Positions 31,999-64,000 of a DNA stretch of 64,000 nucleotides are shown in pieces. Each line of letters starts with the position of its first letter. Position 1 is the stretch's first letter. The position numbers and the translations under genes were made by a program. The stretch comes from an uncultured Bacillota bacterium (GTDB lineage: Bacteria > Sysuimicrobiota > Sysuimicrobiia > Sysuimicrobiales > Segetimicrobiaceae): the NCBI GenBank assembly GCA_963804645.1, contig CAWDRG010000022.1:32001-96000 (forward strand), given 5' to 3'. The notes beneath the pieces are model-generated. The model was not told the DNA's origin and searched no databases. It saw only the letters and a list, made by a program, of their open reading frames with translations.

Positions 31999-33258
31999 TC
32001 AGCTCTTCACCCGCTGGTCAGACCGTGCTTGCGGGACGGCCGGGTCCGGCGAGGACGGATTCGGCGCCAAAGCTCCGCGCGCAAGCGCAGTTGCCCCCGC
32101 TTGAAGAGCCATGTGGCCGCGCTGGATCCCTTCTGTAGTGAGCGCGCGCAACGCGGCTAAGTTTGAGGCCAGCCCCACGCATCCGATGATCATGCTGAGT
32201 GTTTTGGCCGATGTCACTCCAAGAATCCGCTGCGCTAAGAGCGCCCCCTCGTGCGCTTGCAGCGTGCCGCCCACGGTGCCCACTGCCATCGGCATCTCGA
32301 GCCGCCCCAACAGCGCACCATCGTCGACCGCCCAAGTGGCCAGCGGGCGGTAACTCCCCTTGATCGCGGCGAACGCGTGGGCGCCGGCCTCAACGCCCCG
32401 CCAGTCGTTCCCCGTCGCGAGTACCACCGCATCCACGCCATTCATAATACCTTTGTTATGTGTGGCAGCACGATAGGGATCGTCCTCCGCAAAATGTGAG
32501 GCGGCAGCGATGCGATCGCACACCTCAAGCCCGCCGAGTCCATCTGTCGCTAACGAAGCTGCGGGGATGCGAGCGAACGCACGGACGCACCGATGATCTG
32601 CCAAGTTGGTCAAGATGCGAAGTCCGCTCCGCCCGCCGGCGAGACGAGCCACATGATCCGCCAACGCCTCGGCCACCGTATTCGCCATATTCGCGCCCAT
32701 GGCATCTCTGCAATCGATATCGATATGGACCACAAGACGCTCAGACGTACCATCGTCGCGCTTTATCGCACGGACCGCAACGCTGCGGGCGCCACCGCCA
32801 CGTTCCTTCAGCCGGGGAACGGCCGCGTTGGCCAGGTGAAGCAACTCGTCCGTTCGCTCTAGTATCCGGTCGCGGGCGGCCTGGACATTCATAACGCCGC
32901 AGACCTCTAACTGAGCAGTCATGAGGGCGTCGTCGGCTTCAGCGTGGAATCCCCCGCCGTCGCGCACAATGCGCGCGCCATTCGAGGCTGCGGCAATCAC
33001 GGAAGGCTCTTCAACAACCATCGGGACCACGTAGTCTTGGCCGTTGATCAAGAAATTGAGCGCAAGCCCAAATGGGAGCGCGTACACTCCTACGACGTTC
33101 TCAACCAGTCGTTCTGCCCGCACCGCCGGGAGCCCGCCGCTGTCGAGGACCGCGATATCCTCGCGCTTCAGGGATCCGCGTCTCACCAGCTCTTCTCGGC
33201 GCGCGTCGATTGAAAGACGACGGAATGCCGGAATCCGTGAGCCGTGTTCAGCGCCCAT
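31999..33258 (-). CDS. mvaA: class II HMG-CoA reductase
   Basis: ENVVG, EEPSVIAA, DAMGAN, RAATHNKGIMNG, GTVGG, EGIQRGHM. Confidence 0.95.
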   Translation of the reverse strand: MGAEHGSRIPAFRRLSIDARREELVRRGSLKREDIAVLDSGGLPAVRAERLVENVVGVYALPFGLALNFLINGQDYVVPMVVEEPSVIAAASNGARIVRDGGGFHAEADDALMTAQLEVCGVMNVQAARDRILERTDELLHLANAAVPRLKERGGGARSVAVRAIKRDDGTSERLVVHIDIDCRDAMGANMANTVAEALADHVARLAGGRSGLRILTNLADHRCVRAFARIPAASLATDGLGGLEVCDRIAAASHFAEDDPYRAATHNKGIMNGVDAVVLATGNDWRGVEAGAHAFAAIKGSYRPLATWAVDDGALLGRLEMPMAVGTVGGTLQAHEGALLAQRILGVTSAKTLSMIIGCVGLASNLAALRALTTEGIQRGHMALQAGATALARGALAPNPSSPDPAVPQARSDQRVKS

Positions 33259-34246
33259 GTCCCGGCCTCGGCGGGGCAAGTTGCAATCGCGTCACTCCGG
33301 TCGTGTTGACATCGATGTTCAGCACCGTAACGCCTCCCAGGACCGCGAGACGTGAGCAGAATTCATCGACGGCTCCCTGCTCAGCAAAGAAAGCGATGCC
33401 GATGTCGCCCCCACCTGCCCCAGAAGGCTTCGCTGCCCCCCCGAGCGCTGCACCAATTTCGGCCGCAAGACGAAAACGCGAGGTGACGATGGGGGTTGAA
33501 GCCGCTGCACCCAACTCTGCCAGCGTGGCTCCGTAGTCGCGCGCCGCATCAATGACCTCCCCGACCCGTCCGATCGCATAGGCTTGGCGGAATTGATCTG
33601 CCAGTGCCTTGAGGCGCTCGATGACGGCGATATAGGCGTGAGGGGAACGCTGAGCCAAGGACACCACGCTGCGGATCATTGCCACCGTGGATTCCGATTG
33701 GCCGGTCCAGAACACTACTGTTCTCAGCTGGGCAAGTGGTGAGAGCTGGACAATCTCCGGCGATCTTCCTGGCGGACGAACGAATCCGATGATTCCCCCA
33801 TACACGGCTGCGGCCACATCGGCTCCAGACCCTCGGCCACCCTGCGCCGCGCTGTGGGCTGCCTCCGCCGCTGAAAAGGCAAGGTGTCGGTTCGCGTCCA
33901 CTGAAACCCCGACCGTTTCCATGAGCGCGGCCACACTGGCCACCGCCGTCGCCGCGCTGGAACCGAGGCCGAGCTTCATCCCCCCGTTGCTGAAGGTGGA
34001 TGTATCCACCTGGACCGCCCCACGCGGGAGCGCAGATGCCCTGGCGCCGAGCGCAGCCACGGCCGCGCGCATGGCCTCGGTGACAAGGGGTGACTGAGAG
34101 ACTGACCCCGGTACATATCGCGCGACAGCGTAACGGTTGATGCTTGCCAGTACGGCGACGCCTCCCTCCAGCACGGCATACTCGCCAATCAAGAAGATCT
34201 TGCCTGGCGCGGCGACCGCGGATGCGTCTCCGAGGGTGGCGTTCAC
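33248..34246 (-). CDS. mvaK2: phosphomevalonate kinase (GHMP family)
   Basis: APGKIFLIGEYAVL, KLGLGSSAA, AQGGRGSGADVAA, KPSGAGGGD; GTG overlaps the mvaD stop. Confidence 0.88.
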   Translation of the reverse strand: MNATLGDASAVAAPGKIFLIGEYAVLEGGVAVLASINRYAVARYVPGSVSQSPLVTEAMRAAVAALGARASALPRGAVQVDTSTFSNGGMKLGLGSSAATAVASVAALMETVGVSVDANRHLAFSAAEAAHSAAQGGRGSGADVAAAVYGGIIGFVRPPGRSPEIVQLSPLAQLRTVVFWTGQSESTVAMIRSVVSLAQRSPHAYIAVIERLKALADQFRQAYAIGRVGEVIDAARDYGATLAELGAAASTPIVTSRFRLAAEIGAALGGAAKPSGAGGGDIGIAFFAEQGAVDEFCSRLAVLGGVTVLNIDVNTTGVTRLQLAPPRPGHGR

Positions 34247-35241
34247 GGTTGAACGCTCTCGAGGAGGTGGGCGCCCGGTCCCGGAGAGGCGACGACGCAA
34301 CGGACGACACCCGGCACGATTCGCACCGCGTTGTGGACGTTTTCCGCATCCCGTGCGGCGCACAGCACTTTGACGTGAGGACCGGCATCGATGGTAAAGA
34401 ATGCAGGGATCCCTGCTGCTCGCAAGTCGCCAACGGTGCGCATGACGTCTAAGGTCGTGGCATTCCAATACACGATCGGAGGTTCCGAGCTCAGCGTGGT
34501 TGCGTGCATTCGAAGACAGTTCCGCTCGGTGATGGCGCCGAGTCGGCTCAGGTCGTGCGCCGCAATGGCGGCGCGGGCTTCCGTGAGATCCCGATCTATC
34601 GACGCGAGCCAGGCCACGAAATATGGGGACGTGAGCGCGGCCCGTTCCATCGCCTCGGTCGATCCGATGCTTTTTCTCTCTGTCGACGTCATCACGATCA
34701 CCATGCGAACGTCCCACCCCTCGCCCTCGCTCAGGGGACGTGCCACCGAGTCCGCTCCGTCGGTCCGGGTCCCTCTCTGCATTTCGACGAACCCGCCGAA
34801 AATCGAGCGAGCCGCCGAGCCCGATCCACGGCGAGCCAGTTCGGAGAGTTCCACGGGTGACAGCTCAAGCGATGCGGCACGCGATGCCGCGAGTGCCAAG
34901 GCGGCGAATCCGGACGCGGATGATGCGATCCCGGAGGCTGTGGGAACGGTGTTGACGGTCACGACCTCCGCGCGCAGGGTCAGCTTGGCCTGCACGCGTA
35001 CGAGGTCAAGGAACGCGCGTACCCGGGCAGTCGTCCTTGCGTCGGTCCCAACGCCGTTAAGGGTCACGTGATCCTGAGTAAGCGCAGGAGCAAATTGGAC
35101 GGTGGTTGTGGTGCCCATCTCTCTCAATGTCAGCGACAGACTTCCCGTGGCTGGCAAGTTGAGTTCGCTCTGTCGCTTTCCCCAGTACTTGACGAGGGCG
35201 ACATTCGCTCCGGCGATCGCGGTGCAGGGTGCAAAGGTCAC
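34243..35241 (-). CDS. mvaD: diphosphomevalonate decarboxylase
   Basis: NVALVKYWGK, PTASGIASSASG, RRGSGSAARS, FTIDAGP; GGAGGA RBS before GTG 35241. Confidence 0.95.
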   Translation of the reverse strand: MTFAPCTAIAGANVALVKYWGKRQSELNLPATGSLSLTLREMGTTTTVQFAPALTQDHVTLNGVGTDARTTARVRAFLDLVRVQAKLTLRAEVVTVNTVPTASGIASSASGFAALALAASRAASLELSPVELSELARRGSGSAARSIFGGFVEMQRGTRTDGADSVARPLSEGEGWDVRMVIVMTSTERKSIGSTEAMERAALTSPYFVAWLASIDRDLTEARAAIAAHDLSRLGAITERNCLRMHATTLSSEPPIVYWNATTLDVMRTVGDLRAAGIPAFFTIDAGPHVKVLCAARDAENVHNAVRIVPGVVRCVVASPGPGAHLLESVQP

Positions 35242-35375
35242 ACGTCCTCCCTCGGATCCGCCAACGCATTGAAGCCGATTCATCTCTTCGCGCTCTCGTC
35301 CCTTCCGCGACGGCGTTCTGGCTCGGCGTGGACTGATCAGGCACCCCGGACGCCTCGGGGCAGCGTATAAAAAAT

Positions 35376-36326
35376 TCAAGGCTCGCCCAGCGTGGAGAGA
35401 AACCCATCATAGCCATGTTTGCGCCAGGTCCCCAGGACACGTTCCTCGCTTCCCGGGGCTAACGCGATGACCGCACCTCCCCCGCCGGCGCCCGTCATCT
35501 TTGCGCCAATAGCACCGGCGGACCGCGCCAGGTGAACCATGGTGTCAAGTTCGAAGGCGGAAACTCCGATCGCCACTAATAAGCCGTGGGCCACGTCCAA
35601 TAGCCGTCCGAGCACGTCGATCTCACCCGCCACGAGTGCGATAGTGCCCTCATCACTGAGCTCTCCCATCGTCTTTAGGATGCTCGCCGCCGCCGCGGTT
35701 TGGTCTCTCAGCCGTCGCACCTTCTCAACCTGAGCCAGCGTATGTCGAGGTCTTCCCGACAGGCCCACGCACAGAGTGATCGGTTGCCGAGTGTGGATCG
35801 GTTGCCATCCCGCGCCGCGATCGAACCGGCCAACTCCGCCTTCAAAAGCGACAGCCGTGTCGATGCCGGAAGGAGATCCGTGAAAGACGGCCTCCGCGTC
35901 GAAAGCCGCCTGCCGTGCTTCGTGATCGCCGAGGCCGACTGCCTGTGCGGTTGCCCGTGCGATCGCCGCCGACACCGCAGCAGAACTCCCCAGCCCCGCG
36001 CGGGACGGGATATCCACAGCGAGATCAAAGTCTAGGCCTCCGGCATCGAGCCGCGTGAGAATGGCCTGCAGCGCCCGTCCGACCTGCGAACCATCAGCCA
36101 CCTGCACCTCAAGGCGCCAAGCCGGGATGGACAGCCGGCCGTTCCCCTGCTTCGCAATCGCGGTGGCACCTTTCGGCAGGCTGGCAGCGACGGCCGGGTG
36201 TCCGTAGACAACTGCGTGCTCCCCGAAAAGTATCACTTTCCCATGGCCGAAGGCCGTCCGAGGACGAACATGGGCCGTCCCCGGGATTGGAGCACCACCA
36301 GTCAACGGGGCCCTCGGGCGATCCAT
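35376..36326 (-). CDS. mvaK1: mevalonate kinase
   Basis: GKVILFGEHAVVYG, PSRAGLGSSAA, HGSPSGID, GAKMTGAGGGG. Confidence 0.93.
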   Translation of the reverse strand: MDRPRAPLTGGAPIPGTAHVRPRTAFGHGKVILFGEHAVVYGHPAVAASLPKGATAIAKQGNGRLSIPAWRLEVQVADGSQVGRALQAILTRLDAGGLDFDLAVDIPSRAGLGSSAAVSAAIARATAQAVGLGDHEARQAAFDAEAVFHGSPSGIDTAVAFEGGVGRFDRGAGWQPIHTRQPITLCVGLSGRPRHTLAQVEKVRRLRDQTAAAASILKTMGELSDEGTIALVAGEIDVLGRLLDVAHGLLVAIGVSAFELDTMVHLARSAGAIGAKMTGAGGGGAVIALAPGSEERVLGTWRKHGYDGFLSTLGEP

Positions 36327-36484
36327 CTATCTGGCGCCGCCGGAACACATCAGGGATGCCATCCCATACTCCGCGCCGTCTTGATTGTGAGTGACGCTCC
36401 TCGCGAGCGACATGGCGGACTCCCCTGAGGGTTCGGATTGCAACGGTCGCCTCCGCGATTGCGGTATGTCGCCGGCGCCTATCC

Positions 36485-37654
36485 TCATCGCGAGTTCTCT
36501 ACCAGCGCCGCGAAATGAACTTCTAAGACGCCCAATTCTGTCAAACGAGCCGTTGTGGCCTGCCGGACAGCCAACACGTGAGGAAGGACCAGTTCGCGCT
36601 TGAAGTTACCGACGGTGAGGAACAGTTCATCCCCCCGCTTGGTCATTTCCACCTTCTCGATTTCTACGTGAGGCAACGGCAGGCGCAGGATCCACTCTCC
36701 ACCGCGCTCTTCAATCTGTTGCCCTGGACCGGTCGAAAGCACGTCCATGGGATTTCTATCACCCCATAAATCGCGAGCGAGACGCTTCAGCGCTCGTTCG
36801 CCCACAACTTCATCCTCGTACCAGGGAACCTCAAACAACGGGAGGGGTGCAAACGTCTCATGAATCATCTCGATATAGTGCTGCTGGACTGTTTGAAGGC
36901 GACGAAAGTAAGGATCACGGGAAGGCGCGGCGGTAAGAATACGATTGATGACGCCGGCGTCAACGGAATACCCGAACAAATTGAGATACGTGACGGCGCG
37001 CTGAGTTTCCTTGATGACCATTTTTTCCGGGTTCAGCACTACCCGATACGAGCTGATCTCGGGATCGGTCAGGATCCCACGCAGCTCAGTCACCTCGCTC
37101 TGAAGTTTGGCGAGTGCGTCGAACAGGTCATGAGAACGCGCCAGGCCGAGAGTCCGCGCGACCTTCCCGAGTTGGCCGCCCCACTGCCCGAGACGACCGG
37201 CATACCACTGGAACGATTCCGGCAAGCTCAATAAGCGCACGGATTCGCCGGTCGGTGCGGCGTCCACGATGACGGCTTCAAATTTCCGTTCGTGCAGTTG
37301 CCGATGAATGTGAAGGAGGCTGACGATTTCCTCGAGGCCGGGAATCATGGCGAGTTCCTCGGCGATGATTTGGCTCGTGCCGCGCTGCTGAAGCATCGAC
37401 GACACGTAGTCCTGCAGTTGGTGCCAGTGGGTGCGGATCTCGCTCAGTGCGTTGATCTCCTGTCCCCAAAGCCTCTCGGCTAGGGGCGTCGGCTCCGCCG
37501 CCAACCGTTGGTCGACGACATCGGCCAGACTATGCGCAATGTCGGTGCTCACCACCAGAGTTTGGTATCCCAATTCCGCGCATCGCAGGGCAGTCGCCGC
37601 GGCGATTGTTGTTTTACCCACGCCGCCCTTTCCCAAGTAGAGAATGAAACGCAT
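36485..37654 (-). CDS. ArsA/Get3-family ATPase with C-terminal HSP20-like domain
   Basis: GKGGVGKTT, STDIAHSL, DAAPTG, NPEKMV; C-terminal beta domain LRLPLP...GDEL.LTVGNFKR; no ArsA metalloid Cys cluster seen. Confidence 0.92.
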   Translation of the reverse strand: MRFILYLGKGGVGKTTIAAATALRCAELGYQTLVVSTDIAHSLADVVDQRLAAEPTPLAERLWGQEINALSEIRTHWHQLQDYVSSMLQQRGTSQIIAEELAMIPGLEEIVSLLHIHRQLHERKFEAVIVDAAPTGESVRLLSLPESFQWYAGRLGQWGGQLGKVARTLGLARSHDLFDALAKLQSEVTELRGILTDPEISSYRVVLNPEKMVIKETQRAVTYLNLFGYSVDAGVINRILTAAPSRDPYFRRLQTVQQHYIEMIHETFAPLPLFEVPWYEDEVVGERALKRLARDLWGDRNPMDVLSTGPGQQIEERGGEWILRLPLPHVEIEKVEMTKRGDELFLTVGNFKRELVLPHVLAVRQATTARLTELGVLEVHFAALVENSR

Positions 37655-37721
37655 CGTTTGCCGCTCTGCGCGACCTGGGCGCACAACTGCCCCCGAAACG
37701 AAGGGACCCGTACCGACGGTC

Positions 37722-37994
37722 CTAGCCGTCCTTTTTGTCTTGCTCTTCCGCGAGTTTTTCAAGGCTCTCAGCCAATTTACGAGTCAACGAAGCCAGTCCC
37801 CAGGTCGCCTCGCGACCGGCGGCCTTGAGATGTTTTCTGGGCTCCGGGGGCAACATGTTCACCGGGATCATCGCGATGCTCACCCCCGCCTCCAACAGAC
37901 TCTGTGCAAAACGCTGAACGGATCGCTCTCGATCGTTGGGTCCCTGGGCAATGTTGCGAACCGGCACTTCACGCTTGTCCTTCTCGGGCACCAT
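37722..37994 (-). CDS. small helical hypothetical protein
   Basis: GAGG RBS; 90 aa with LPPE..KHL.AA.RE..LASL amphipathic helix; lies between the reductase and ArsA. Confidence 0.6.
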   Translation of the reverse strand: MVPEKDKREVPVRNIAQGPNDRERSVQRFAQSLLEAGVSIAMIPVNMLPPEPRKHLKAAGREATWGLASLTRKLAESLEKLAEEQDKKDG

Positions 37995-38047
37995 TGACGC
38001 ACCTCGCAATTGGATTGTATGGTCACGTCCAACGTATGACCCACCGC

Positions 38048-39574
38048 TCACACTTTGTCGACCCGACCCCGACGCCCCGTGGTTCGCCGTCCTTCGACAA
38101 CCTCGTCGAACGTCAACGTTGCCGGCGTATCTTGGTATTTGCCTTTGAGACCAGCAAGCACTCCGAGCCCTCTTGTCAACACATCCACGCCCCACTCGAC
38201 CGTTTCAAACGGCTCACGTGCCATCTCGCTGATCGCGTCGAGCATCTTGCTGGCACCGGTCAGTGCCCAGTCCATCGTACCCGGCGCGCCCACGTCCGAC
38301 GAAAGCCCGAAAGCGCGCTGCCAGAAGGGGACGCCATGCAGCAAGGTTCTCGCGATGACAGTCGGCGAGAGACTGTAATGAGTCGGCACCACGCCCGCAA
38401 GAATTCCGCCGCACGTCGCGGCATAGTCGCGATCGGTGAGGGCTTTCTCTCCGATCATTTTCAAGATCAACAACCAGACTCCCGCGAGCGAGCGGTTTTT
38501 GATAATCGTGACAATGAGATCTGCCGTACGCATATCCAAATCGAACGCCGCGCGCCACCGCTGCTCGTACCGCGAGAGGAACCGTGCATCCAACTGATCG
38601 GCCCGTAAGGCTTCATCCGCCACGCCGGCCGCGATTCCCGCGCTTTCCAGCGCCTTCTGAATGCCCTCCCCATTGATCGGATCAACGAAGTTCGCCGCGT
38701 CCCCGATGAGCAGCACCCGGTCGGCATAGTTGCCGCCAGCCGTGTGGTAGGTGTTCAGGGGCCAGCCGACGATCGGCCCGTCCAGCGTGGCGCCGCCCAA
38801 CCGCGCTCGCGCGACGGGATCCTGCGCGATCCAGGTGGTCAAGCGTTCGCGCAGGTTGATCCGGTAGCGCTGGTAGACGTCCATCACCATGCCCAAGCCC
38901 ACGTTCGCTCGATCGGGTCCCACCGGAAAGATCCAGGCGTAACCTGGGAAGAAACTCTCGTCGAATGAGATCTCGGCCTGAGACGGATCACCTTCCACGC
39001 CGTTGTAGTAGGCTCGCAGGGCTAGCATCGTGCTCTTCGGATCCCGATTGTCCACGCCGAGCGCCTTGGCGACGACCGAGTGAGCCCCATCGGCCGCGAT
39101 GACGAGTCGCCCACGGAAGCTGCAGGGGGTCTTGCTGCGCTGCGCGGATAGGGTGACGCCGTCGGCGTCGATGGCAACGTTCTTGACCTCGCATCCCTCG
39201 ATGGTGTCCACGTGCACTGCTCGCGCTCGCCGGAAGATAAGTTCGTCAAGGATATAGCGCGGCAATGTGCAGCCGTAACCGGGAAGATCCTCAATTTGCG
39301 GGATCTCCCCCGCTGTGATGCGTTGGCTGCCGAGGTGGAGCGACGCGCCGGTGAGTCGATTCGGACCAGCCTGCTCCAGCAAGGATCCACATCCCAGCGT
39401 CTCAAGCATCCGCAGGGATCGCGGGCTGACGAAGTCACCGCAGACTTTGTCCCGGGGGAAGCGGGCCTTATCGAGCAGAAGGACCCGCCAGCCCCGGACC
39501 GCGAGTCGAGTCGCGACGCTGCTCCCACCCGGCCCGCCGCCCACAACCATCACATCGTAGAGGTCCTTGCCCAT
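38048..39574 (-). CDS. geranylgeranyl reductase family FAD oxidoreductase
   Basis: VVGGGPGG, FPRDKVCGD, AADG, PGYAWIFP, IGDAA..DPINGEGI; about 100-aa C-terminal extension. Confidence 0.9.
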   Translation of the reverse strand: MGKDLYDVMVVGGGPGGSSVATRLAVRGWRVLLLDKARFPRDKVCGDFVSPRSLRMLETLGCGSLLEQAGPNRLTGASLHLGSQRITAGEIPQIEDLPGYGCTLPRYILDELIFRRARAVHVDTIEGCEVKNVAIDADGVTLSAQRSKTPCSFRGRLVIAADGAHSVVAKALGVDNRDPKSTMLALRAYYNGVEGDPSQAEISFDESFFPGYAWIFPVGPDRANVGLGMVMDVYQRYRINLRERLTTWIAQDPVARARLGGATLDGPIVGWPLNTYHTAGGNYADRVLLIGDAANFVDPINGEGIQKALESAGIAAGVADEALRADQLDARFLSRYEQRWRAAFDLDMRTADLIVTIIKNRSLAGVWLLILKMIGEKALTDRDYAATCGGILAGVVPTHYSLSPTVIARTLLHGVPFWQRAFGLSSDVGAPGTMDWALTGASKMLDAISEMAREPFETVEWGVDVLTRGLGVLAGLKGKYQDTPATLTFDEVVEGRRTTGRRGRVDKV

Positions 39575-39619
39575 CTTACCTCCCTCCTCGTGGCGAACGA
39601 CTCCCGCGTCAAGGGTAGT

Positions 39620-42037: not shown

Positions 42038-42089
42038 GGCTCTCACTCCCTTTGATGGTGATCTGAACCCCGAGATCGACGTTGCGTGC

Positions 42090-56507: not shown

Positions 56508-56508
56508 C

Positions 56509-57576
56509 TCACGCCACCTCGCGAACAGGGCGGTAGACCTCGTCGACGAGCCGGCGGGCCAGCCGAACCGGGTCGTGCCGGAGGGCCACGTACGCCGGAC
56601 CGCGCCGGCGCAGCTCCCGGCGGAGCGCCGGCGCGCCCAGGATCTCGTGGATCGCCTCGCACCACACCCGGGGATCGCGCGAACGGACGAGGCGGCCGCC
56701 CGACCCCGGCCCCACGGCCTCCACGAGGCCGCCCACGGCCGCGGCCAGCACCGGCGCGCCGACCCGCATCGCTTCGAGGGCCACGATCCCGAACGGCTCA
56801 TACTCGCTCGGGATCAGCACGAGCCCCGCGCCCGAGAACAGCCGGTCCAGCGTCTCCCGGTCCACCCACCCGACGACGCGGCAGGCCTCCGGATGCGCCG
56901 CGGCCAGACCGTCCGCGATGCGGTGCCCGAGCGCGTCGCCGTGTCCGCCCGCCACGACGAATCGGTACCGGCCCGCGAGGCGGCGCACGATCACGTCCAA
57001 GAGCGCCATCCCCTTGCTGCGCGCGAAGCGGCCGGCAAACACGACCGGGCCCGGCTCCTCCGGCGCGGGCCCCGCGGGCGGCAGGGCGGCCACCCCGTTT
57101 GGCAGCACGCTGCTGCGCCCCGCGAGCGACGGGAGGCGGTCGAGCGCGGCCGTGCGCTCGTCCGCGCTGAGGAAGACGACGTGGTCGCTCCGCGTCATGA
57201 GCGCGACCTGCAGCCGCCGCCAGCCCTCCGCCTCGGGGACGCCCGGCAGCTCCCGCTCGAGCAGGGAATGCGCGGTGTAGACGAGCGGCACGCGAAAGCG
57301 GCGCCGCATCTCCAGCGCGAGCTCGCCCAGGCTGAGCGAGTGCAGATGGATCACGTCGAACTCGGCCGGCCGCACCGGACAGCGGTCCCCGGACAGCCCG
57401 TGGACCACCGGACCGCGCCCCGCCGGCGCCGCGGCGGGGCCGTCCGCCCGCGCGGGGGCCAGCACGTGCACGTCCACGCCGACCGCGGTCAGCGCGGCCG
57501 CCTGCGCCGCCACGGCCGTCCCGATGCCGGACCAGACGGGCTCGGGATAGTCGGCGGTCAGCATCAAGGCGCGCAC
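56509..57576 (-). CDS. glycosyltransferase family 4
   Basis: DYP...SGIG, YTAH, LPNG, FAGRF..SKG, YEPFGIVALEAM. Confidence 0.92.
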   Translation of the reverse strand: MRALMLTADYPEPVWSGIGTAVAAQAAALTAVGVDVHVLAPARADGPAAAPAGRGPVVHGLSGDRCPVRPAEFDVIHLHSLSLGELALEMRRRFRVPLVYTAHSLLERELPGVPEAEGWRRLQVALMTRSDHVVFLSADERTAALDRLPSLAGRSSVLPNGVAALPPAGPAPEEPGPVVFAGRFARSKGMALLDVIVRRLAGRYRFVVAGGHGDALGHRIADGLAAAHPEACRVVGWVDRETLDRLFSGAGLVLIPSEYEPFGIVALEAMRVGAPVLAAAVGGLVEAVGPGSGGRLVRSRDPRVWCEAIHEILGAPALRRELRRRGPAYVALRHDPVRLARRLVDEVYRPVREVA

Positions 57577-57580
57577 GCGG

Positions 57581-59503
57581 TCACCTCGGCCCCGCGTCCG
57601 GTGTCCGGGCGAGGACCGTCAGTTGGTCGGAGTCTCCTCCGCCGAGCTGCCGCATCAGCCGCATCCAGCGCGGCGACATCTCGTCCGGAAGCGCCGGGAC
57701 CCGCAGCCGCTCGGGCGCGTCGAAGCCCGCGCTCGTCAGGAGCGTCGAGAGCGACGTCTCGGTGAAGTACTGTAAATGCACCAACGGATTGATCGCCTCC
57801 CAATGCTTGCCGAGAACCTTGAAGTGCATCGACCCCAGATCCGGAACCGCCACGTACAGCAGGCCGCCCGGGTTCAGCACGTCGGCGACCTGCTCGAGCG
57901 CCGCCCGCGGGTCCGGCAGGTGCTCCAGGACGTGGCTCATGACCACCACGTCGAACGCCTGCCATGGGATCGGATCGCGCCCCACGACGGCGCGCGCGAC
58001 GCGGTCGCCGAACTCGAGCGTGAGGCGGTCCACCTGGGCCTGCGAGCTGTCGACGCCGTACACCTCAAAGCCGTACGCCGGCGCGACGCGCATCAGGTAG
58101 CCGCGGCCGAAGCCGAGATCCAGGAGACGCGCGCCGGACGTCCGCAGCGACAGCCAGTGGCAGATGAACTCGGCGTACATGCGCTGCGCTTCCAGGTACC
58201 GGTCGTCGGCCGCGCTGGGATCGTCCTCGAGCAGCCGGGCCTGCACCTCACCGCTGATACGCGGGCTGACGTACACGTGGCTGCACGCCGCGCACCGGTG
58301 GTAGGCGAAGCCTTGCTTCTGGAACAGCGGCCGCCGTTCCCGCGACCCGCAGGCGCCGCACGCCACGGACACGAGGGCCGCGGGCCCCGCCTCTTCGACC
58401 ACCTGCTGCAGCTCGGAGAACCAGAAGAGGCGCGCCGGCGGCGCCGGCGGAGGCGCCGCGTCGACCGCGGGCTCGACGAACAGGCCGAGGCGGTACGCGA
58501 TCTCGCAGGACTCGGAGAGTTTGGACAGCGCGACCCCGCGCTCCAGCGCGGGCAGCGCCTCGGCCATCGCCCCGAGGTCCAGGAACGTCTCCGCGATGCG
58601 GCGCTCGACCCCGACGGGCACGCGCCGCAGCGGGGCCAGCTCGGTCGCCGCGCGGTCGTCCCCCCGCGCGCGGTCCCCGTTGAGCCGGCTGAGCGACACC
58701 AGGTTCGGCTGTCCCTCCCGCAGATCTTCTTCCTGATCCTGCACGTCGTTCAGGTACTGGGCCAGCTCGAAGTACCGCTCCAAGAACGGCAGCAGCGCCG
58801 ACGTGCGACCCGGATCGAGCGCCGAGTACAGCGCCCGCAGGGACTCGACGTTCTTGAGGCGCACGAGCCGGTCGTACTCTTCCAGCGACCACTCGTGGAG
58901 ATCGGTGTACTCGATGATCGCCCCGATCACCGTGCGGCGCAGCGACCCGACCAGGGCGCGCAGGGTCGCGCCCCCGTCCGCGCCGGCCGGGTCGGCGAGC
59001 CGGTCGAGGCCCTCGAAACACAGCAGCAGTCCCGCCAGAATGCTCAGGCCCACCGCCTGCTGGGTCGTGGGCCGCGCCTCGCTCACCGCCGCCAGCAGCG
59101 TGTCGTGCCGTCCCTTGTACGACACGTGCTGGTCGATGATGTCGTCGAACACCCGCGTAATCGCGATGTGGACGAGCCCGCACGCCGCGACCGCGCGGCG
59201 AAACGCGTCCGGCGCGGGCCGCACGGCGACCGCGAACACCGGCAGATCCCAAAGGGACCACTGCATCCAGCTCACGTACTCCGACGCCTGCGCCGCCAGC
59301 TGCACCGCGACCGCGTTCTGCTCGGAGATGCGGGCCACGTCGTCGCGCATGCGCGCCAGCGCCTCGTCGATCCCGAGGCTGATCTCGGCGCGGTACGCCT
59401 CGATCTCGGCGCGATACTCGGCGAGGAACGCCTCCGCGGCGGCCCGGCTCGCCTCGCGGAGGGTCGAGACGCGCACGAGCAGCTCCTGATGGGTCGCGGT
59501 CAC
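57581..59503 (-). CDS. class I isoprenoid-synthase-fold domain fused to a zinc-binding class I SAM methyltransferase
   Basis: DDIID and NDVQDQEED metal motifs in a helical N-domain; CGAC/CAAC, LDLGFGRG, MSHVLEH, LNPGG, HLQYF in the C-domain. Confidence 0.75.
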   Translation of the reverse strand: MTATHQELLVRVSTLREASRAAAEAFLAEYRAEIEAYRAEISLGIDEALARMRDDVARISEQNAVAVQLAAQASEYVSWMQWSLWDLPVFAVAVRPAPDAFRRAVAACGLVHIAITRVFDDIIDQHVSYKGRHDTLLAAVSEARPTTQQAVGLSILAGLLLCFEGLDRLADPAGADGGATLRALVGSLRRTVIGAIIEYTDLHEWSLEEYDRLVRLKNVESLRALYSALDPGRTSALLPFLERYFELAQYLNDVQDQEEDLREGQPNLVSLSRLNGDRARGDDRAATELAPLRRVPVGVERRIAETFLDLGAMAEALPALERGVALSKLSESCEIAYRLGLFVEPAVDAAPPPAPPARLFWFSELQQVVEEAGPAALVSVACGACGSRERRPLFQKQGFAYHRCAACSHVYVSPRISGEVQARLLEDDPSAADDRYLEAQRMYAEFICHWLSLRTSGARLLDLGFGRGYLMRVAPAYGFEVYGVDSSQAQVDRLTLEFGDRVARAVVGRDPIPWQAFDVVVMSHVLEHLPDPRAALEQVADVLNPGGLLYVAVPDLGSMHFKVLGKHWEAINPLVHLQYFTETSLSTLLTSAGFDAPERLRVPALPDEMSPRWMRLMRQLGGGDSDQLTVLARTPDAGPR

Positions 59504-60606
59504 GCGCCGCCCCCGCGCGCCCGGCACTCGTCCCGGGCCAGAAACGCGACGGAGAGGGCCGCGGCCCAGGCGGGCGACCCGACTCCTTTGACCGCGAAGT
59601 CCTCGTACGGCCGCTCGGCCCCCGGTTCCAAGCCGCGCAGCACCGCGAGCCGCGCCTGACGCAGCGCCGGACCGACCTCGCCGAGATACTGCAGCGCCGT
59701 CGCGCCGAGCGCGGTGCTGAGCGGGCCCCCAAACTCGCCGGTCGGGCGCTGCAGGCCGCCCAGCAGCGGGAGCAGCCGCTCCGCCACCTCGCGCCGGTGC
59801 GGCAGATCGCCTTGGGCCCACGTGCGGCCGACCGCGTAGAAAAAATACAGCGGGTCGGGAAACAGCGATGTGCCGTGCTGCAGGGTCCCGTCGGCCGTGT
59901 GCTCCCACAGCCACGCCGCCAGCCACGCGGTCTGCGGCTGGTCCCGCAGCCCCGCGCGGCACAGGTAGCGCAGCACCTCCACGTTGACGACCCGGTCAAA
60001 CCCGACGATCGGCCGCCCGACTTCGTCGGTCCACCCGTACAGGCCGCGGCCGCGCCGCACGAACGTATAGTACGCGCCGGAGGCGGACCGGAAGCTTTGA
60101 ACGACCGCGAGCTGCCGCTCCCAGCGCTCCAGCTGCTGCGCCCCGTAACTCTCGAGCAGCGCCGCGGCCGCAGACGCCGTGGTGGCGACGTCGGGATCGA
60201 TCCCCGCTCCGCGCCCGAAAAAGCGCCAGTCGCCGGCGGCCTCCTGCTGCCACGCCAGAAACTGGCGGATGCGGCGGCGCGCGTCGACCACGGCGCGCAT
60301 CGCCCCCTCGCGCGCCCGCGGCGGAAACACATCGAGGCTGCCGTCGACCCATCCCGGCGACCACGGGTCGAACGGCGAGAGCGCGTCGTGGACGAACGCG
60401 GACACGAACGGACTGCGGCACTGCACGTAGCGTCCGTCCGGATCCCGGCGGTACGACAGGATTTCCCCGGACGGGTGCTGGCTCCACAGAATCATCCGGA
60501 GGGTGCGCAGCACGCGCTCGCCGAGCACCCGCCGCGCCGGAGACTCCTCGGCCGCCGCGCCGCCGGCGCCCCAGGGCATCAGGGCCTGCGGGGTCAACGC
60601 CGTCAT
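59500..60606 (-). CDS. prenyltransferase/squalene-cyclase-type alpha/alpha barrel protein
   Basis: QW-like repeats (SQHPSG, FLAWQQEAAGDWRFF, LQRPTGEFG), DPDVATT at the DxDD position, D.VVN..VL.YL. Confidence 0.7.
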   Translation of the reverse strand: MTALTPQALMPWGAGGAAAEESPARRVLGERVLRTLRMILWSQHPSGEILSYRRDPDGRYVQCRSPFVSAFVHDALSPFDPWSPGWVDGSLDVFPPRAREGAMRAVVDARRRIRQFLAWQQEAAGDWRFFGRGAGIDPDVATTASAAAALLESYGAQQLERWERQLAVVQSFRSASGAYYTFVRRGRGLYGWTDEVGRPIVGFDRVVNVEVLRYLCRAGLRDQPQTAWLAAWLWEHTADGTLQHGTSLFPDPLYFFYAVGRTWAQGDLPHRREVAERLLPLLGGLQRPTGEFGGPLSTALGATALQYLGEVGPALRQARLAVLRGLEPGAERPYEDFAVKGVGSPAWAAALSVAFLARDECRARGGGA

Positions 60607-62324
60607 GCGTCGGTCCGCTCGACCATGAGGGCGAGAAACTTGCTGAGGTTCGTGGTGCGCCACTCCCGCCACGCATCCTCGACGTGGCGCGCGACGTCGC
60701 CGCGCAGTTCGGCGGGGACCGGACGCTCCCCGTTGAGCTCCCGGGGGGCGGCGTCGTAGACCGTGTCGGCGAGCACCCCGCGGGCGCCGCGGGGCCAGGC
60801 GGGCAGCCGTTCGACCACGGCGCGGTAAGCGCCGACGAAGCGGTCGTACGAGTCGCACAGCGCCGGGAACCCTCCGTCGGAGGTCCCGTCTACCACACGC
60901 TCGAGCGCGCGTTCGGCCGCGACCAAGCCGACCTCGACATCCGAGATCGGCGGCGTGGCGAGATCCGCCAGCGGGACGATCCCCCGTCGGGCCAACACCT
61001 GCCGCATGCCCGCCGCGACGTCGTCGAGCGGCGCCTCATCGCTGAAGTAGTAGCTGGCCGCGCTCGGCACGCGCCAGTCTTCGAGGCCCGGGGCCGCCAG
61101 CACAAGCGTCGTGCAGCCGAGCGTCGGCGCCGCGTGGGCGGTGAACGAGTCGGCGCAGATCACGGCGTGCGCCTCTTCCAGCTCCGCGAAGACGCCATCG
61201 AGCGGGAGTCCCCGCGCCTCGCCGGCGGCGGCGACCTCGAAGCGCGCGGCGAGTCCCGGGTGCCGGCCCGCGGCGGCGCGCGCCACGTCCGACGCAAACC
61301 GCCGGGTCGTCAGGTTGGGGCCCGGGTCCAGCACGACCCGGACCGGTCGGCCCGCGTCCGCCGGCACCACGGCGGCGACGAGCTGGCTCCAGTAGCGGGG
61401 CGACGGGTCGTACTTCGACGTAAAGGGGGACACGTAAATCCGCAGGATCGCCGGATCCGGGACCGCCCGCCGCGCGACAGCGGTCAACAGGTCCGCGGTC
61501 GCGGGTGACACGCCGAGCCCGCGCGCGAGCCGGGCGAACCCATGGTAGTAGTTCCCGAACGCCGGGGCCGTCTCGGCGACCCGGTGGATCCACCGGCGGC
61601 GGTTGTCCACGGCGACCATCACGTGAGCGCCGATCGACAGTTCCACGTAGCGCGGGATCCGCTCCTCGCGCGCGACGGCCTGGTGCAGCTCGGGATTCTC
61701 AAAATCGATCAGCGCCACCAGGTCGAACGCGCCGAGGGCGCTCTCGCCGCGCATCGCGTGCAGCAGGCTCAGATACTCGTGATACCGCTCGACGCGGTCG
61801 ACCCCCGCGACCCGGTTCCACAGCCCCTCGTACGCCGAGAGCACCGTGATCTCCGCGCCGGGCACGGCCGCCTTGATCCAGCGCGGAAGCGGGAACGTCA
61901 TGATCTCGTCGCCGATCCCGATCGCCGGCCCGAGCACCAGGAGCATCCGGCGGGCGTCCCGCAGAAAGTCGGGCGGCGGCGCGGCGTCCCCCGCGATGTA
62001 GCCGCGCGGGAATGTGGTCTGCACCAGCGGCGCCAGCGTCTGCTGCAGCCGTTCGGCGGTCTCGGGCAGGTTCCCGGGGTTCATGCTCCGCAGCAGCCGC
62101 GCGGTCATCGCCGCGCGCGGATGCGCCGCGGCCTCGAACACCCCCGCGAGCGACTGCAGCCCGTCGATCCGCCGCAGGACATAGTGGGTGTTGCTGCGGC
62201 TGATCGGGCGCCGCGTGAGAAAGAACAGGTACCGCGACACCACGAGCGCCGGCAGCAGCAGCGCCGGATCCCACGGAGCCTCGGCGCGCGCGCGAAGCGC
62301 GCTGGCGGGGATCACCACCCTCAC
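60603..62324 (-). CDS. GT9 (heptosyltransferase-like) domain protein with extensions
   Basis: GIGDEI and ICADSFTAHAA motifs, equivalent to GT9 IGD and DSG..H.A. Confidence 0.65.
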   Translation of the reverse strand: MRVVIPASALRARAEAPWDPALLLPALVVSRYLFFLTRRPISRSNTHYVLRRIDGLQSLAGVFEAAAHPRAAMTARLLRSMNPGNLPETAERLQQTLAPLVQTTFPRGYIAGDAAPPPDFLRDARRMLLVLGPAIGIGDEIMTFPLPRWIKAAVPGAEITVLSAYEGLWNRVAGVDRVERYHEYLSLLHAMRGESALGAFDLVALIDFENPELHQAVAREERIPRYVELSIGAHVMVAVDNRRRWIHRVAETAPAFGNYYHGFARLARGLGVSPATADLLTAVARRAVPDPAILRIYVSPFTSKYDPSPRYWSQLVAAVVPADAGRPVRVVLDPGPNLTTRRFASDVARAAAGRHPGLAARFEVAAAGEARGLPLDGVFAELEEAHAVICADSFTAHAAPTLGCTTLVLAAPGLEDWRVPSAASYYFSDEAPLDDVAAGMRQVLARRGIVPLADLATPPISDVEVGLVAAERALERVVDGTSDGGFPALCDSYDRFVGAYRAVVERLPAWPRGARGVLADTVYDAAPRELNGERPVPAELRGDVARHVEDAWREWRTTNLSKFLALMVERTDA

Positions 62325-63100
62325 ACCGGGCTCAGCGAGGTCACGAGCCAGCGCTTGTCCCGCTGCGGCTTGAAGACGGCGATGCGGCGCTCCATGATCG
62401 TCCGCCGCGCTCCGTCGGCGGGATGTTCGGCGTCGATCATCAGCTCCGTGTAGACCAGGATAGCGTCGGGGTAGAGAATCGGCTGCGGCATCTCCACAAG
62501 CGACGCCTCGAACCGCCAGCCCCGCAGCGACTCCAGCAGGCGCTTGAACTGCCAGGCGAGGCCGTCACGATCGATCTCGCGGTCGTCCTCCAAGGCGTGG
62601 TAGTCGGGCGCCACGCACGCCATCGCCGACTCCACGTCGCCGCGGCCGATCGCGTGCACCAGATCGTACAGACACCCGACCACCGCCTCGGCGTCGGTGT
62701 CCAGCATCTCCTCCTCGGGTTCCGCCAGCAGCACGCGCAGACTGATGCGCCGGCCGGGCGCCTCGGGCGCGACCGCCGTCGGCGCCGCGTGCCCGACGGA
62801 GGACGGTGAGAGGTACGCGGGCTCGCCGATCGGCGCCGGCGCCAGGCGCTCGATCCCGGCCGCGGGGTCGCCGGGCGCCTCGAAGAAACTGTCCCACGGG
62901 TTCGCCCCGCGGGGCGCCGGCCGGAACCACATGCTGAGGCGGTCGGTGGCGCTGAGCCGCCCGCCGAGCGGCGCCGGGGACAGGTACGACTCCTGCCAGG
63001 GCGACAGGGTGTCGCCCCCGCGGCCCAGTTCGGCGAGCACGCGGTGCAGCAAGACGATCGCCTCGTCCAGCCGAGCGTCCACGGACCGTCCCACCGCCAT
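62321..63100 (-). CDS. protein with C-terminal NTF2/SnoaL-like domain
   Basis: AIGRGDVESAMACVAPDY...IDRDG...W pattern; low-complexity N-terminal half. Confidence 0.65.
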   Translation of the reverse strand: MAVGRSVDARLDEAIVLLHRVLAELGRGGDTLSPWQESYLSPAPLGGRLSATDRLSMWFRPAPRGANPWDSFFEAPGDPAAGIERLAPAPIGEPAYLSPSSVGHAAPTAVAPEAPGRRISLRVLLAEPEEEMLDTDAEAVVGCLYDLVHAIGRGDVESAMACVAPDYHALEDDREIDRDGLAWQFKRLLESLRGWRFEASLVEMPQPILYPDAILVYTELMIDAEHPADGARRTIMERRIAVFKPQRDKRWLVTSLSPV

Positions 63101-63142
63101 CACCCGCCTCCCCTGGGGATTTCGTGCCGCCGCACCTCGGGC

Positions 63143-64000
63143 CTAGCGACTCCGCTGCATCAGATACTTGGACAACCGTACAAATCGGTATTTCGCCGCC
63201 GTCTCAGGAAGCTCCGCGAGGTACTGCACCGCCTCGTCGATCAGGCTGTTCGCCGTCTGCTCGGCCCGTTCCCGGGCGCGCGTCCGCCGAAACAGTTCGT
63301 GGACCCAGGCAACCTCATCCGGAGTCGTCTCCTGCCGCGCCCGGTTGAGGATCGCGAACATGCGTCCCCGCTCCGCCGCGGCGGAGCGCTCCGACGCGTA
63401 CGCAACCATCAAGGTGCGCTTCCCCTCCAGCACGTCCGAGCCGAGCGGCCGGCCCTTCCCGCCGACGACATCCAGGGCGTCGTCCTTGATCTGAAACGCC
63501 ACCCCGGCCTGCAGCGCGAAAGCTCGGAGACGCTGGAGGTCTCGCGCGTCGGCGCCGCCGATGATGCCCCCGCCCACGGCCGCCATCGCGAAGAACGCCC
63601 CCGTCTTCTTGCGCGCGCACTCGACGTAATCCTCCGGCGTCGGCGCGTCGTTGCGGCGCAGATTGATGTCCAGCCCCTGCCCCTCGGTCACCAGGAGGCC
63701 GAGCTCCGACAGCACCTGGAACAGCGCCACTTTGGTCTGCGCGGAGTACGCGCCCTCGAGAATCGCGAGCGAGCTGAGCGGAATGAACGCGTCGCCGATG
63801 TTGATGGCGTGGGCCACGCCGAACCGCTGCCACGCCGAGGGGCGTCCCCGGCGCTCGCCGTCGCCGTCGGCGATGTCGTCGTGAATCAGGCTGAAGTTCT
63901 GCAGATGCTCGATCGCCGCGGCAAAGTGCAGCGCCGGGCGGTACGACCCGCAAAACATCTCGCACGTAGTCGCGCACAGCGCCGCCCGGACGCGCTTCCC
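63143..64000 (-). CDS. polyprenyl (probably GGPP) synthase, 5' end outside the window
   Basis: GKRVR at the window edge, FSLIHDDIAD.D..RRG, GQGLD, KT, FQIKDD.LD, EGK. Confidence 0.95.
   Translation of the reverse strand, partial: GKRVRAALCATTCEMFCGSYRPALHFAAAIEHLQNFSLIHDDIADGDGERRGRPSAWQRFGVAHAINIGDAFIPLSSLAILEGAYSAQTKVALFQVLSELGLLVTEGQGLDINLRRNDAPTPEDYVECARKKTGAFFAMAAVGGGIIGGADARDLQRLRAFALQAGVAFQIKDDALDVVGGKGRPLGSDVLEGKRTLMVAYASERSAAAERGRMFAILNRARQETTPDEVAWVHELFRRTRARERAEQTANSLIDEAVQYLAELPETAAKYRFVRLSKYLMQRSR

Follow-up and report, generated by a model that had tools for sequence, protein, structure and literature searches.

What is made by a run of genes in which terpene-type folds, a ketosynthase set and several glycosyltransferases follow one another on a single strand? 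The question is raised by the right half of a stretch of 64,000 nucleotides (hereafter the window, G000:C22:32001-96000, from a parent contig of 175,641 bp) of G000, a soil metagenome-assembled genome (MAG) of 5.3 Mb in 22 contigs that is 96.8% complete. A sequence-only reading of window positions 31999-64000 had taken the entire run as one hybrid system. The analysis here presented separates it into two pieces. The part from 44.4 to 64 kb, together with ~8 kb past the window end, is read, with about as much confidence as doubt, as a member of a conserved, unnamed family of gene clusters whose most likely product is a glycolipid, namely a terpenoid glycoside that is acylated and methylated and, in this strain, probably also carbamoylated. 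On the contrary, the block at 31.8-44.4 kb, with genes for the mevalonate (MVA) route, a geranylgeranyl reductase (GGR), a Get3-like ATPase, a HEAT protein and a second polyprenyl synthase, is a later, foreign and strain-specific insertion outside that family.

Gene calls were based on third-position G+C, since a G+C content of ~0.70 yields many long spurious open reading frames (ORFs), and were checked with Pfam and NCBIfam; window numbering is carried past 64000 for genes beyond the window end. All genes previously listed for 31999-64000 were found on the minus strand, those from 63103 down to 44444 mutually overlapping or abutting, and the folds guessed for them (class I and class II terpene folds, a family 9 glycosyltransferase (GT9), a ketosynthase (KS) with a chain-length-factor (CLF) partner, and an acyl carrier protein (ACP) with a zinc ribbon) were all confirmed. 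In the following, G-numbers denote genomes and L-numbers related loci of the comparison set, PPS1 and PPS2 are the two polyprenyl synthases, TC2 is the class II-like protein, TS1MT is the fusion of a class I fold, a zinc ribbon and a methyltransferase, and TS1 is its class I-fold domain.

A conserved cluster shared by distant bacteria

The signature of the cluster is a set of four genes in fixed order, coding for an NTF2-like protein, a GT9-like protein, TC2 and TS1MT. A scan of metagenome contigs returned 58 loci with this signature, and a scan of genomes taken one per species returned 25, all of them MAGs; the loci compared, 80 altogether, are the 58 from metagenomes and 22 further ones from genomes. 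NTF2, GT9 and TC2 genes were present in every metagenome locus with at least 3.6 kb of upstream DNA (28/28). As labelled, the 25 genome loci belong to Acidobacteriota (17, including Candidatus Multivoradales), Chloroflexota (2), Myxococcota (2), Actinomycetota (2), Calditrichaceae (1) and 'Firmicutes' (1).

Gene frequencies were evaluated in the 36 loci flanked on each side by 9 kb or more (the long-flank set), KS and the other genes being sought within 10 kb. GT9 occurs in all 36, NTF2 in 35, the DUF4185/ligase region in 34, TC2 and a family 4 glycosyltransferase (GT4) in 33 each, and KS in 31 (best-hit assignment, 13/16 + 18/20), followed by the candidate enoyl-ACP reductase (ER) and the ketoreductase (KR) with 28 each, a 537-aa protein (24), a hydrolase (18), a carbamoyltransferase (11), a phosphopantetheinyl transferase (PPTase, 8), a Methyltransf_24 gene (6), GGR (2) and a family 1 glycosyltransferase (GT1, 1). 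Because they stand together in 31 of these loci, the terpene-fold genes and the KS/CLF-ACP-KR-dehydratase (DH)-ER genes are considered one conserved unit. Thus, the earlier joining of a terpene and an acyl sub-block is borne out, the two co-occurring in two gene orders, and the idea that they never meet elsewhere fails. These orders correspond to a co-directional layout, with the acyl genes after the module, and to a divergent one, with the acyl genes upstream, a distant prenyl synthase and the ligase gene converging from downstream.

The complete order, u520-PPS1-NTF2-GT9-TC2-TS1MT-GT4-ER-KR-ACP-DH-KS-DH-CLF-hydrolase-(methyltransferase)-DUF4185-ligase/ACP/acyltransferase-GT1, is kept at 50-90% identity in G041, in G042 and in the same-genus relative G043 (= G004), whose TS1MT is 91% identical to the window copy. 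L031, a JGI metagenome contig of 15,561 bp that covers u520 to CLF, carries a TS1MT 100% identical to that of the window. Within lineages the cluster is rare, full-length TS1MT being found in 2 of 41 relatives of G000 and the cluster in 1 of 201 genomes of the family of a Granulicella-labelled MAG (G097); because of this rarity, a transferable specialised pathway is favoured over a core membrane lipid, and the patchy spread fits the former. The GTDB phylum of G000 itself comprises 94 species genomes, all in one order.

The signature module

The NTF2/SnoaL-like protein (62321-63103, 260 aa; this and all following genes of the cluster lie on the minus strand up to the window end) gave a weak SnoaL_2 match (E 0.0025) and no significant match in a profile search of PDB sequences. 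Alignment of 15 orthologues (alignment A5) nonetheless reveals a conserved N-terminal motif, SATDLLxWWFRP, the invariant residues His150 and His169, and a near-invariant Asp178.

The next protein (60603-62324, 573 aa) was assigned to the GT9 fold by means of the ESM Atlas, an AlphaFold2 (AF2) model and Foldseek. It shows a GT-B core flanked by helical N- and C-terminal extensions of ~100 aa at each end. Among its 30 nearest ESM Atlas clusters, 27 are GT9 (score 0.95), its AF2 model reaches a predicted local distance difference test (pLDDT) value of 87.3, and the best nine Foldseek matches of this model in the PDB are all GT9 enzymes (3tov, WaaC, WaaF; E 2e-7 to 2e-6). By sequence the relationship is silent: no Pfam match, PF01075 included, appears at E<=1, none is found in NCBIfam, and a profile of 15 orthologues matches no PDB chain. 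WaaC and WaaF heptosyltransferases act on a lipid-anchored sugar acceptor, and by analogy the fold suggests a lipid-anchored acceptor here.

TC2 (59500-60600, ~366 aa) is a class II terpene-cyclase-like alpha/alpha-toroid. Its single sequence matches no Pfam family, its nearest ESM Atlas clusters carry SQHop_cyclase_C or AstC-like_C, and the profile of 12 orthologues (alignment A3) matches squalene-hopene cyclase (1gsz, E 3.9e-5) and the class II domain of drimenol synthase (9mhs, residues 301-522, E 6.6e-5) in the PDB. Class II enzymes bear the acid motif DxDD, or DxDTT in drimenyl synthases, and at the corresponding site of TC2 the first Asp (D137) is invariant across the 12 aligned orthologues. 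Judged by the rest of this motif, TC2 is not filed as a catalytically canonical class II cyclase.

TS1MT (57581-59521, 646 aa; alignment A1, AF2 and Foldseek) joins an isoprenoid-synthase fold to a class I S-adenosylmethionine (SAM)-dependent methyltransferase (Methyltransf_23, E 1e-25) through a zinc ribbon of the form CxxC...CxxC (C388, C391, C410, C413). The first 380 residues match no Pfam model, terpene synthase models included, and the TS1 domain of the window gives no PF00348 match even at E<=1, its second motif not being DDxxD. Nonetheless, for residues 1-380 an AF2 model built on 28 relatives reached a mean pLDDT of 91.0, and Foldseek matched it in the PDB exclusively to trans-isoprenyl diphosphate synthases (5jfq, 3aqb, Rv2173 and others), with 56 matches at E<=1e-3, template modelling (TM) scores of 0.41-0.66 and E values from 3.2e-5. 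In the first Asp-rich motif, DDxxDxH, residues R123, D126, D127, D130 and H132 do not vary across 16 fusions, nor across 28 sequences when stand-alone relatives are included. The second motif reads N258-D259-x-x-D-x-x-x-D266, followed by P272-N273, with Q255, D259 and D266 invariant and N258 and N273 nearly so. Terpene synthases share the NSE/DTE consensus (N,D)Dxx(S,T)xxxE; the TS1 motif has equal spacing, with Asp in place of both Ser/Thr and Glu.

Among 1.84 billion protein representatives, 163 TS1 relatives were found at E<=1e-3 and 42 at E<=1e-30. The best full-length ones are fusions of 562-662 aa, many others being fragments, and their database names are 'SAM-dependent methyltransferase', 'hypothetical protein' and the like. 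Weaker relatives include ~50 stand-alone proteins of ~320 aa with faint polyprenyl_synt signals (E 2e-3 to 2.5e-6), of which P0061 alone just passes the 27-bit cut-off (27.3 bits). In a sister family (P0104 and ~10 other representatives, 610-650 aa) a TS1-like domain of the stand-alone type is fused to a TC2-like domain, that of P0104 matching the TC2 profile at 98.2% probability and bearing a canonical DVDD. Since the gene order is invariant and apparent fusions exist (the sister TS1-TC2 family, and GT9 and TC2 sharing a frame), the four module proteins are suggested to form one complex. The shared frames are found at L068:7338-9992 and L076:7290-9980, where GT9-like and class II-like sequences lie in one open frame of ~885-900 aa; in G+C-rich DNA such a frame may also be open by chance. 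Complex prediction for the TS1 domain with TC2 gave no answer (score 0.00), and no conclusion was drawn from it.

Acyl-chain genes and the ligase frame

Downstream of the module, a FabL-like short-chain dehydrogenase/reductase (SDR; 55740-56801, likely start near 56510) is the ER candidate. It matches adh_short_C2 at E 6e-58 and the NCBIfam FabL model with 265.7 bits, below the cut-off of 328, and its orthologues align from residue 99 (L002) and 115 (L003). It is followed by a FabG-like 3-oxoacyl-ACP reductase, the KR (54989-55747; NCBIfam PRK12826.1-2 FabG, 252 bits, cut-off 222), and by an ACP of 196 aa with a C-terminal C4 zinc ribbon (54350-54940; PP-binding, E 1e-9), in which Ser49 and Cys147/150/165/168 are invariant in 13 orthologues. 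Two FabZ-like dehydratases with FabA-like domains (53895-54494, E 3e-20; 52121-52591, E 2e-15) stand on either side of the FabF-like KS (52612-53898), which retains Cys-His-His and scores 436.8 bits with PRK07314 of NCBIfam (cut-off 387). The KS-like partner of CLF type (50844-52268, likely start near 52124; ketoacyl-synt, E 4e-24), when aligned with KS, has Tyr for the Cys and Asp and Phe for the two His. Hence the set combines a Cys-His-His KS, a homologous partner devoid of the active-site Cys and a discrete ACP. Regarding the reducing steps, the assignments of KR and both DH are clear, and that of the candidate ER is based on the sub-cut-off FabL-like SDR. An alpha/beta hydrolase, a candidate thioesterase (50000-50686; Abhydrolase_1, E 2e-9), and a Methyltransf_24 methyltransferase (49371-49949; Pfam E 9e-16) come next.

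The region at 45718-49539 required closer inspection of its frames, the one with the best third-position G+C switching several times within it. A DUF4185-like protein (48313-49539; 56.6 bits, cut-off 39.5) is followed by a single gene for an acyl-AMP ligase, an ACP and a PlsC-type acyltransferase (45722-48210; AMP-binding, E 1e-40). In the part of PMC10115798 drawn on here, DUF4185 is described as a family of D-arabinan endo-arabinofuranases. In G041 and G042 the corresponding region holds a separate DUF4185-like gene and one unbroken ligase-ACP-acyltransferase gene, relative to which the window gene changes frame near 46935, 46610 and 46100; the same-genus locus L024 differs from the window by single-base indels at these sites. 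Logan contigs from four short-read peat-metagenome runs, belonging to two studies, contain a strain ~98% identical to the window, and over 45700-49600 they differ from it by ten 1-nt indels in 3.9 kb. Nine are identically placed in all four runs (45755, 45875, 46094, 46611, 46733, 46934, 47894, 48312 and 48334), and the tenth falls at 46728 in all runs but one, which has it at 46729. When these indels are applied, a clean DUF4185-like frame of 477 codons (~48313-49746) is obtained, together with a ligase-ACP-acyltransferase frame of 975 codons (~45722-48649) that aligns in one piece with the G042 protein. The corrected frame contains adenylation motifs, GLSSL, and HYHWLD, FGDTR and PIVPV, which we take to be the motifs of the ligase, the ACP and the acyltransferase, respectively. 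Because four runs of a nearly identical strain restore the frame, the frameshifts are read, on this comparison, as consensus errors of the long-read assembly. The ligase-ACP-acyltransferase recognised by the sequence-only reading is therefore real, though broken by 1-nt indels in the assembly, and the 1273-aa ORF proves to be two genes. A single fused DUF4185-ligase protein of that length was rejected in view of the separate ORFs in relatives and of the indel-corrected frames. Frequent 1-nt consensus errors seem likely in the G+C-rich coding DNA of the G000 assembly, and its other 'frameshifts' and 'fusions' deserve the same short-read check.

Glycosyltransferases, prenyl synthase and genes past the window end

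A GT4 gene (56509-57576; Glycos_transf_1 and Glyco_transf_4) lies between TS1MT and the ER candidate. The GT1 gene, of EryCIII/MGT-like type (44444-45844; EryCIII-like_C and Glyco_transf_28), comes after the ligase gene in G041, G042 and G043 and is the last conserved cluster gene on that side. Beyond it, at 30098-31783 on the plus strand, a GT4-type gene converges on the cluster, at 53 bp from the GT1 end in G043; it may be a further cluster gene.

At the other end, PPS1 is a trans-polyprenyl diphosphate synthase of short-chain type (63143-64000, cut by the window end, its ORF reaching ~64190; polyprenyl_synt, E 3e-48). Its best NCBIfam matches are IdsA/GGPPS-like, all below cut-off, and orthologues with 60-91% identity stand directly upstream of NTF2 in L001, L002, L003, L031 and L034. 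The contig continues upstream of PPS1 with a 520-aa protein (u520) that bears a weak lipase-type alpha/beta-hydrolase signature, and beyond it with an Sfp-type PPTase on the opposite strand, a carbamoyltransferase, the 537-aa protein (GT-B-like, with a weak match to a GT4 N-domain, E 6e-4) and two small unknowns. Further on, on the opposite strand, a DMFA2_C protein, a UXS-like epimerase/dehydratase and a UDP-glucose dehydrogenase are encoded. Because the carbamoyltransferase, the 537-aa protein and the PPTase adjoin GT1 in G041 and G042, where they sit after it, they are placed in the cluster and regarded as rearranged in G000, in which they lie just past the window end. The conserved cluster thus spans ~44.4 kb to ~72.4 kb. 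When the contig is extended rightwards, as suggested earlier, the next 8 kb do hold cluster genes, and the boundaries to be set are these, not those of a run starting at 31999.

An inserted island between two convergent genes

The island (~31790-44440, 12.7 kb, minus strand) differs in composition from its surroundings: G+C is 0.57-0.64 across 32-44 kb and 0.70-0.73 on either side, which makes the 32-kb run compositionally two pieces. In G043, DNA matching window positions 44464-47658 is followed by 53 bp and then by DNA matching 30167-31764. The DNA of this relative therefore joins across the site, ~12.7 kb being missing there exactly between two convergent gene ends.

The island encodes a class II HMG-CoA reductase (HMGR, 31999-33279), phosphomevalonate kinase (PMK, 33248-~34300), mevalonate diphosphate decarboxylase (MDD, 34243-35379) and mevalonate kinase (MK, 35376-36326), all above their NCBIfam cut-offs except PMK, which is below. 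These are accompanied by Get3/ArsA+HSP20 (36485-37762), GGR (38048-39574), the HEAT protein (39620-41380) and PPS2 (42518-43585), assigned by Pfam and NCBIfam, and by two small ORFs. A further ORF at 44047-44394 was rejected as a cluster gene: it is a fragment of 115 aa inside the island, a paralogue of the acyltransferase end that is 46% identical to the cluster acyltransferase region. The presence of this fragment at the right end of the island hints at excision from a related cluster, and by this sequence likeness the island may have been cut out of such a cluster in a donor. No convincing direct repeats were found at its borders, where tRNA and integrase genes were not searched for.

MVA, Get3 and HEAT genes occur in 0 of the 80 related loci. 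The HEAT protein is found in 1 of the 94 genomes of the phylum, G000 itself, and no relative of it was found in the genome-contig search. Relatives carry Get3-like genes with no more than 40-46% identity, and in the 1.5 kb on either side of the five that were inspected neither an MVA nor a GGR or HEAT gene was found. The four MVA genes have their best matches, with 50-65% identity, in Myxococcales MAGs; when HMGR is compared with one-per-species genomes, Myxococcota MAGs come first (54-65%) and several of these share the order MK-MDD-PMK-HMGR, and neither Get3 nor HEAT stands beside HMGR in any of 80 HMGR-related loci examined. Since IspH is found in G000, the genome has a methylerythritol phosphate (MEP) pathway and the MVA genes are an addition. 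The N-domain of HMG-CoA synthase was not found in G000 (96.8% complete), and the MVA route as encoded is accordingly incomplete. In this strain the island may increase the supply of isoprenoid or bring about saturation of the chain. As parts of the system, the MVA genes and the Get3-like ATPase proposed by the sequence-only reading are not upheld.

Proposed product and alternative explanations

The reading of the cluster as a glycolipid pathway draws on observed domain content, on retained metal-binding and active-site residues and on gene linkage, from which we infer what is made and in which order. PPS1, where present, would supply a prenyl diphosphate of probably C15-C25, drawn otherwise from the cell pool. 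Using the Asp-rich motifs that it retains, the TS1 domain would bind this compound and ionise or transfer the diphosphate, TC2 and the NTF2-like protein would shape or hold the chain, and the methyltransferase domain of TS1MT would methylate it. The GT9-fold protein would then add the first sugar to this isoprenoid lipid acceptor, with extension by GT4, GT1 and the GT-B-like 537-aa protein, and the carbamoyltransferase would decorate the sugar. In parallel, KS/CLF, KR, the two DH and the SDR-type ER would build a reduced chain on the zinc-ribbon ACP, presumably after activation of the latter by the Sfp-type PPTase; the hydrolase would release this chain, and the ligase-ACP-acyltransferase would re-activate it and esterify it onto the glycolipid. 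A more specific proposal, held more tentatively and at somewhat less than even chances, is that the module, the DUF4185-like protein and the ligase-ACP-acyltransferase define a new cross-phylum family whose product is an undescribed class of bacterial lipid, a methylated and possibly cyclised isoprenoid glycoside with a dedicated fatty chain, the four module proteins forming one complex that would both process the prenyl diphosphate and attach the sugar before letting it go. As to the product put forward earlier, a lipid that is glycosylated and methylated and joins an isoprenoid part to a purpose-made acyl chain, this remains the most economical reading. Its 'reduced' part is not supported, since it depends on a GGR that is adjacent in few loci (2/36, and also G041). 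In RNA runs, at most 0.07 of the sampled words matched.

Several observations weigh against the glycolipid reading. The window TC2 reads DVAT at the acid motif, the central Asp of DxDD being absent from 7 of 12 orthologues and present in 5 (DSDD, DPDL, DLDL, DVDT and DLDT), so that TC2 may lack cyclase function. For the TS1 fold, the closest structures are prenyl synthases of the chain-elongating kind, with modest TM scores, and not terpene cyclases, and its second motif is neither a classical second Asp-rich motif (SARM) nor a classical NSE/DTE. The GT9-fold, TC2, NTF2-like and TS1 sequences reach no Pfam or NCBIfam model, a polyprenyl synthase lies within 10 kb in 10 of the 36 long-flank loci, and a simple hydropathy scan found no transporter or membrane protein in the conserved set. 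The ligase gene is frameshifted in the assembly, and the runs that correct it come from two studies only and not from the exact genome. Finally, the 36 loci include the near-duplicates L046-L048 and related kin, their counts not being independent, and 5 of them (L058, L068, L076, L094 and L104) have no KS within 10 kb. L058 keeps ER; in the other four every gene of the KS set is missing, and the module is retained together with DUF4185, the ligase and the 537-aa protein. In such loci the ligase presumably uses ordinary fatty acids.

Much of this suits the main rival, improbable as it is considered, according to which the cluster serves to assemble or alter a carrier-bound glycan, the carrier being a polyprenyl (di)phosphate and the end product a cell-envelope glycoconjugate, and makes no free terpenoid glycolipid. 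TS1 and TC2 would be carrier-lipid binding modules, in line with the structural proximity of TS1 to synthases that bind prenyl diphosphate and with the missing catalytic Asp of the window TC2; the GT9-fold enzyme would act on a lipid-linked sugar, like heptosyltransferases on Kdo2-lipid A; the methyltransferase and the carbamoyltransferase would cap the glycan, and the acyltransferase would add a lipid anchor. Absence of a dedicated prenyl synthase from 26/36 loci would fit use of the cell's own carrier lipid, and the up to five GT-like proteins, the UDP-glucose dehydrogenase and UXS-like enzyme nearby, and the conservation in the cluster region of a DUF4185-like protein, from a glycanase family, also agree with glycan assembly. 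Nonetheless, the conserved set contains no flippase, polymerase, ligase, GT-C enzyme or membrane protein, a presence in 2/41 and 1/201 genomes is very patchy for an envelope component, and 5/12 TC2 orthologues, together with the fused sister family, keep DxD(D/T/L), like class II cyclases. The idea that terpene-fold and KS/ACP genes are unrelated neighbours that happen to abut finds a foothold only in the five KS-less loci; with KS in 31/36 loci, in two arrangements and in several phyla, and with genes that overlap or abut in the window, it is close to refuted.

It is also unlikely, on the evidence from the island, that the whole 32 kb works as one system in this strain, with MVA enzymes, PPS2 and GGR feeding a saturated isoprenoid and Get3/HEAT handling a hydrophobic product. 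The island does lie on the same strand directly downstream of GT1, read-through transcription being possible; in G041, G042 and L035 the cluster has homologues of PPS2 (50-52%) and of GGR (38-40%) at its flanks; and both the acyltransferase fragment at the right end of the island and the status of the MVA genes as an addition to the MEP pathway of G000 also speak for this view. On the contrary, G043 keeps the cluster with no island at this site, the MVA, Get3 and HEAT genes are missing from all 80 related loci and a GGR match from all but 2 of 36, the MVA route is incomplete, and the distant Get3-like relatives examined have no such genes beside them.

Other features of the window

Elsewhere in the window, 14805-21011 holds an ATP synthase operon with the order beta, epsilon, ..., a, ..., alpha, which we take to be the N-type (Na+-type) order and not that of the usual F-type operon. 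At 9797-11755, adjoining cytochrome oxidase subunits I and II, a single ORF of 652 aa encodes both parts (N and C) of cytochrome b and, at its C-terminus, a domain of c-type cytochrome. Finally, at 21907-27182 DUF993 is grouped with a GFO/IDH/MocA oxidoreductase and with two TIM-barrel proteins of the xylose-isomerase-like type, a set that looks like sugar or inositol-type catabolism.

Significance and comparison with known systems

The cluster is a hybrid biosynthetic gene cluster with several unnamed protein families, four of its core proteins having neither a family name nor a Pfam model. If the glycolipid reading is true, soil Acidobacteriota, Chloroflexota, Myxococcota, Actinomycetota and others share a transferable hybrid terpenoid-acyl pathway whose product nobody has isolated. 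For natural-product and lipid chemists it would offer a defined target, a cluster of ~25 kb with sources that include a Granulicella sapmiensis-labelled MAG and several multi-megabase contigs, and for enzymologists a GT9-fold enzyme combined in a new way with class I and class II terpene folds. The locus also carries a caution for cluster mining: adjacent MVA, GGR and Get3 genes resemble part of the system, yet they are a strain-specific insertion. The sequence-only reading did not recognise the combination from aryl polyene, ladderane, hopanoid, carotenoid or archaeal-type lipid loci, and full-text literature searches brought up no characterised match among the papers listed; subscription journals and MIBiG lie outside that coverage, so that the cluster may have been published before.

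Aryl-polyene clusters of Gram-negative bacteria, as represented by ape of E. coli CFT073 in the passages of PMC8253772 used here, comprise an acyl-ACP synthetase, ACPs, KS and CLF, KR, two DH, a thioesterase, a methyltransferase and a lysophospholipid acyltransferase. As far as these passages go, both systems have in common an acyl-ACP synthetase for CoA-independent loading of a starter, dedicated ACPs, KS with CLF, KR, two FabZ-like DH, a thioesterase and a SAM methyltransferase, as well as an acyltransferase of lysophospholipid type and a glycosyltransferase, for which attachment of the chain to a larger anchor, either lipid or glycolipid, is proposed; by this analogy the logic of the acyl half would match the aryl-polyene proposal. 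They differ in the ER candidate of the present cluster, the word 'enoyl' being absent from that paper, and since that candidate is present the chain should be reduced. In addition, ligase, ACP and acyltransferase are here one protein, the discrete ACP carries a zinc ribbon, no LolA/LolB-like or resistance-nodulation-division (RND) export genes appear among the annotated cluster genes, and the terpene-fold, GT9-fold and NTF2-like genes, unlisted for aryl polyenes in those passages, occur only here. An aryl-polyene cluster would have LolA/LolB-like and RND export genes and an aromatic starter, and no ER; because of the ER candidate and the lack of Lol/RND genes, the cluster is not regarded as an aryl-polyene one.

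Bacterial labdane-type diterpenoid pathways use pairs of class II and class I synthases. Like these pairs and drimenol synthase (9mhs), the cluster sets a prenyl synthase, a class II-like toroid and a class I-fold protein with DDxxD side by side. On the contrary, TC2 is a single domain of ~366 aa whose window copy is devoid of the central acid of DxDD, and TS1 resembles chain-length synthases and is fused to a zinc ribbon and a methyltransferase. With DxDD incomplete and no terpene synthase model matched, the cluster is not a canonical class II/class I diterpene pair. Regarding the island, its MVA genes follow the MK-MDD-PMK-HMGR order of the Myxococcota mevalonate operon, to which Get3/ArsA+HSP20, GGR, the HEAT protein and a prenyl synthase are added. 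Finally, the GT9-fold protein stands apart from solved GT9 enzymes in matching neither PF01075 nor a sequence profile, in its ~100-aa helical extensions and in sharing a frame with TC2 in two loci; nonetheless, of all PDB chains, it is on WaaC/WaaF (2h1h, 2gt1, 1psw) and on the Veillonella enzyme 3tov that its GT-B core superposes best, with target-normalised TM scores of 0.58-0.65.

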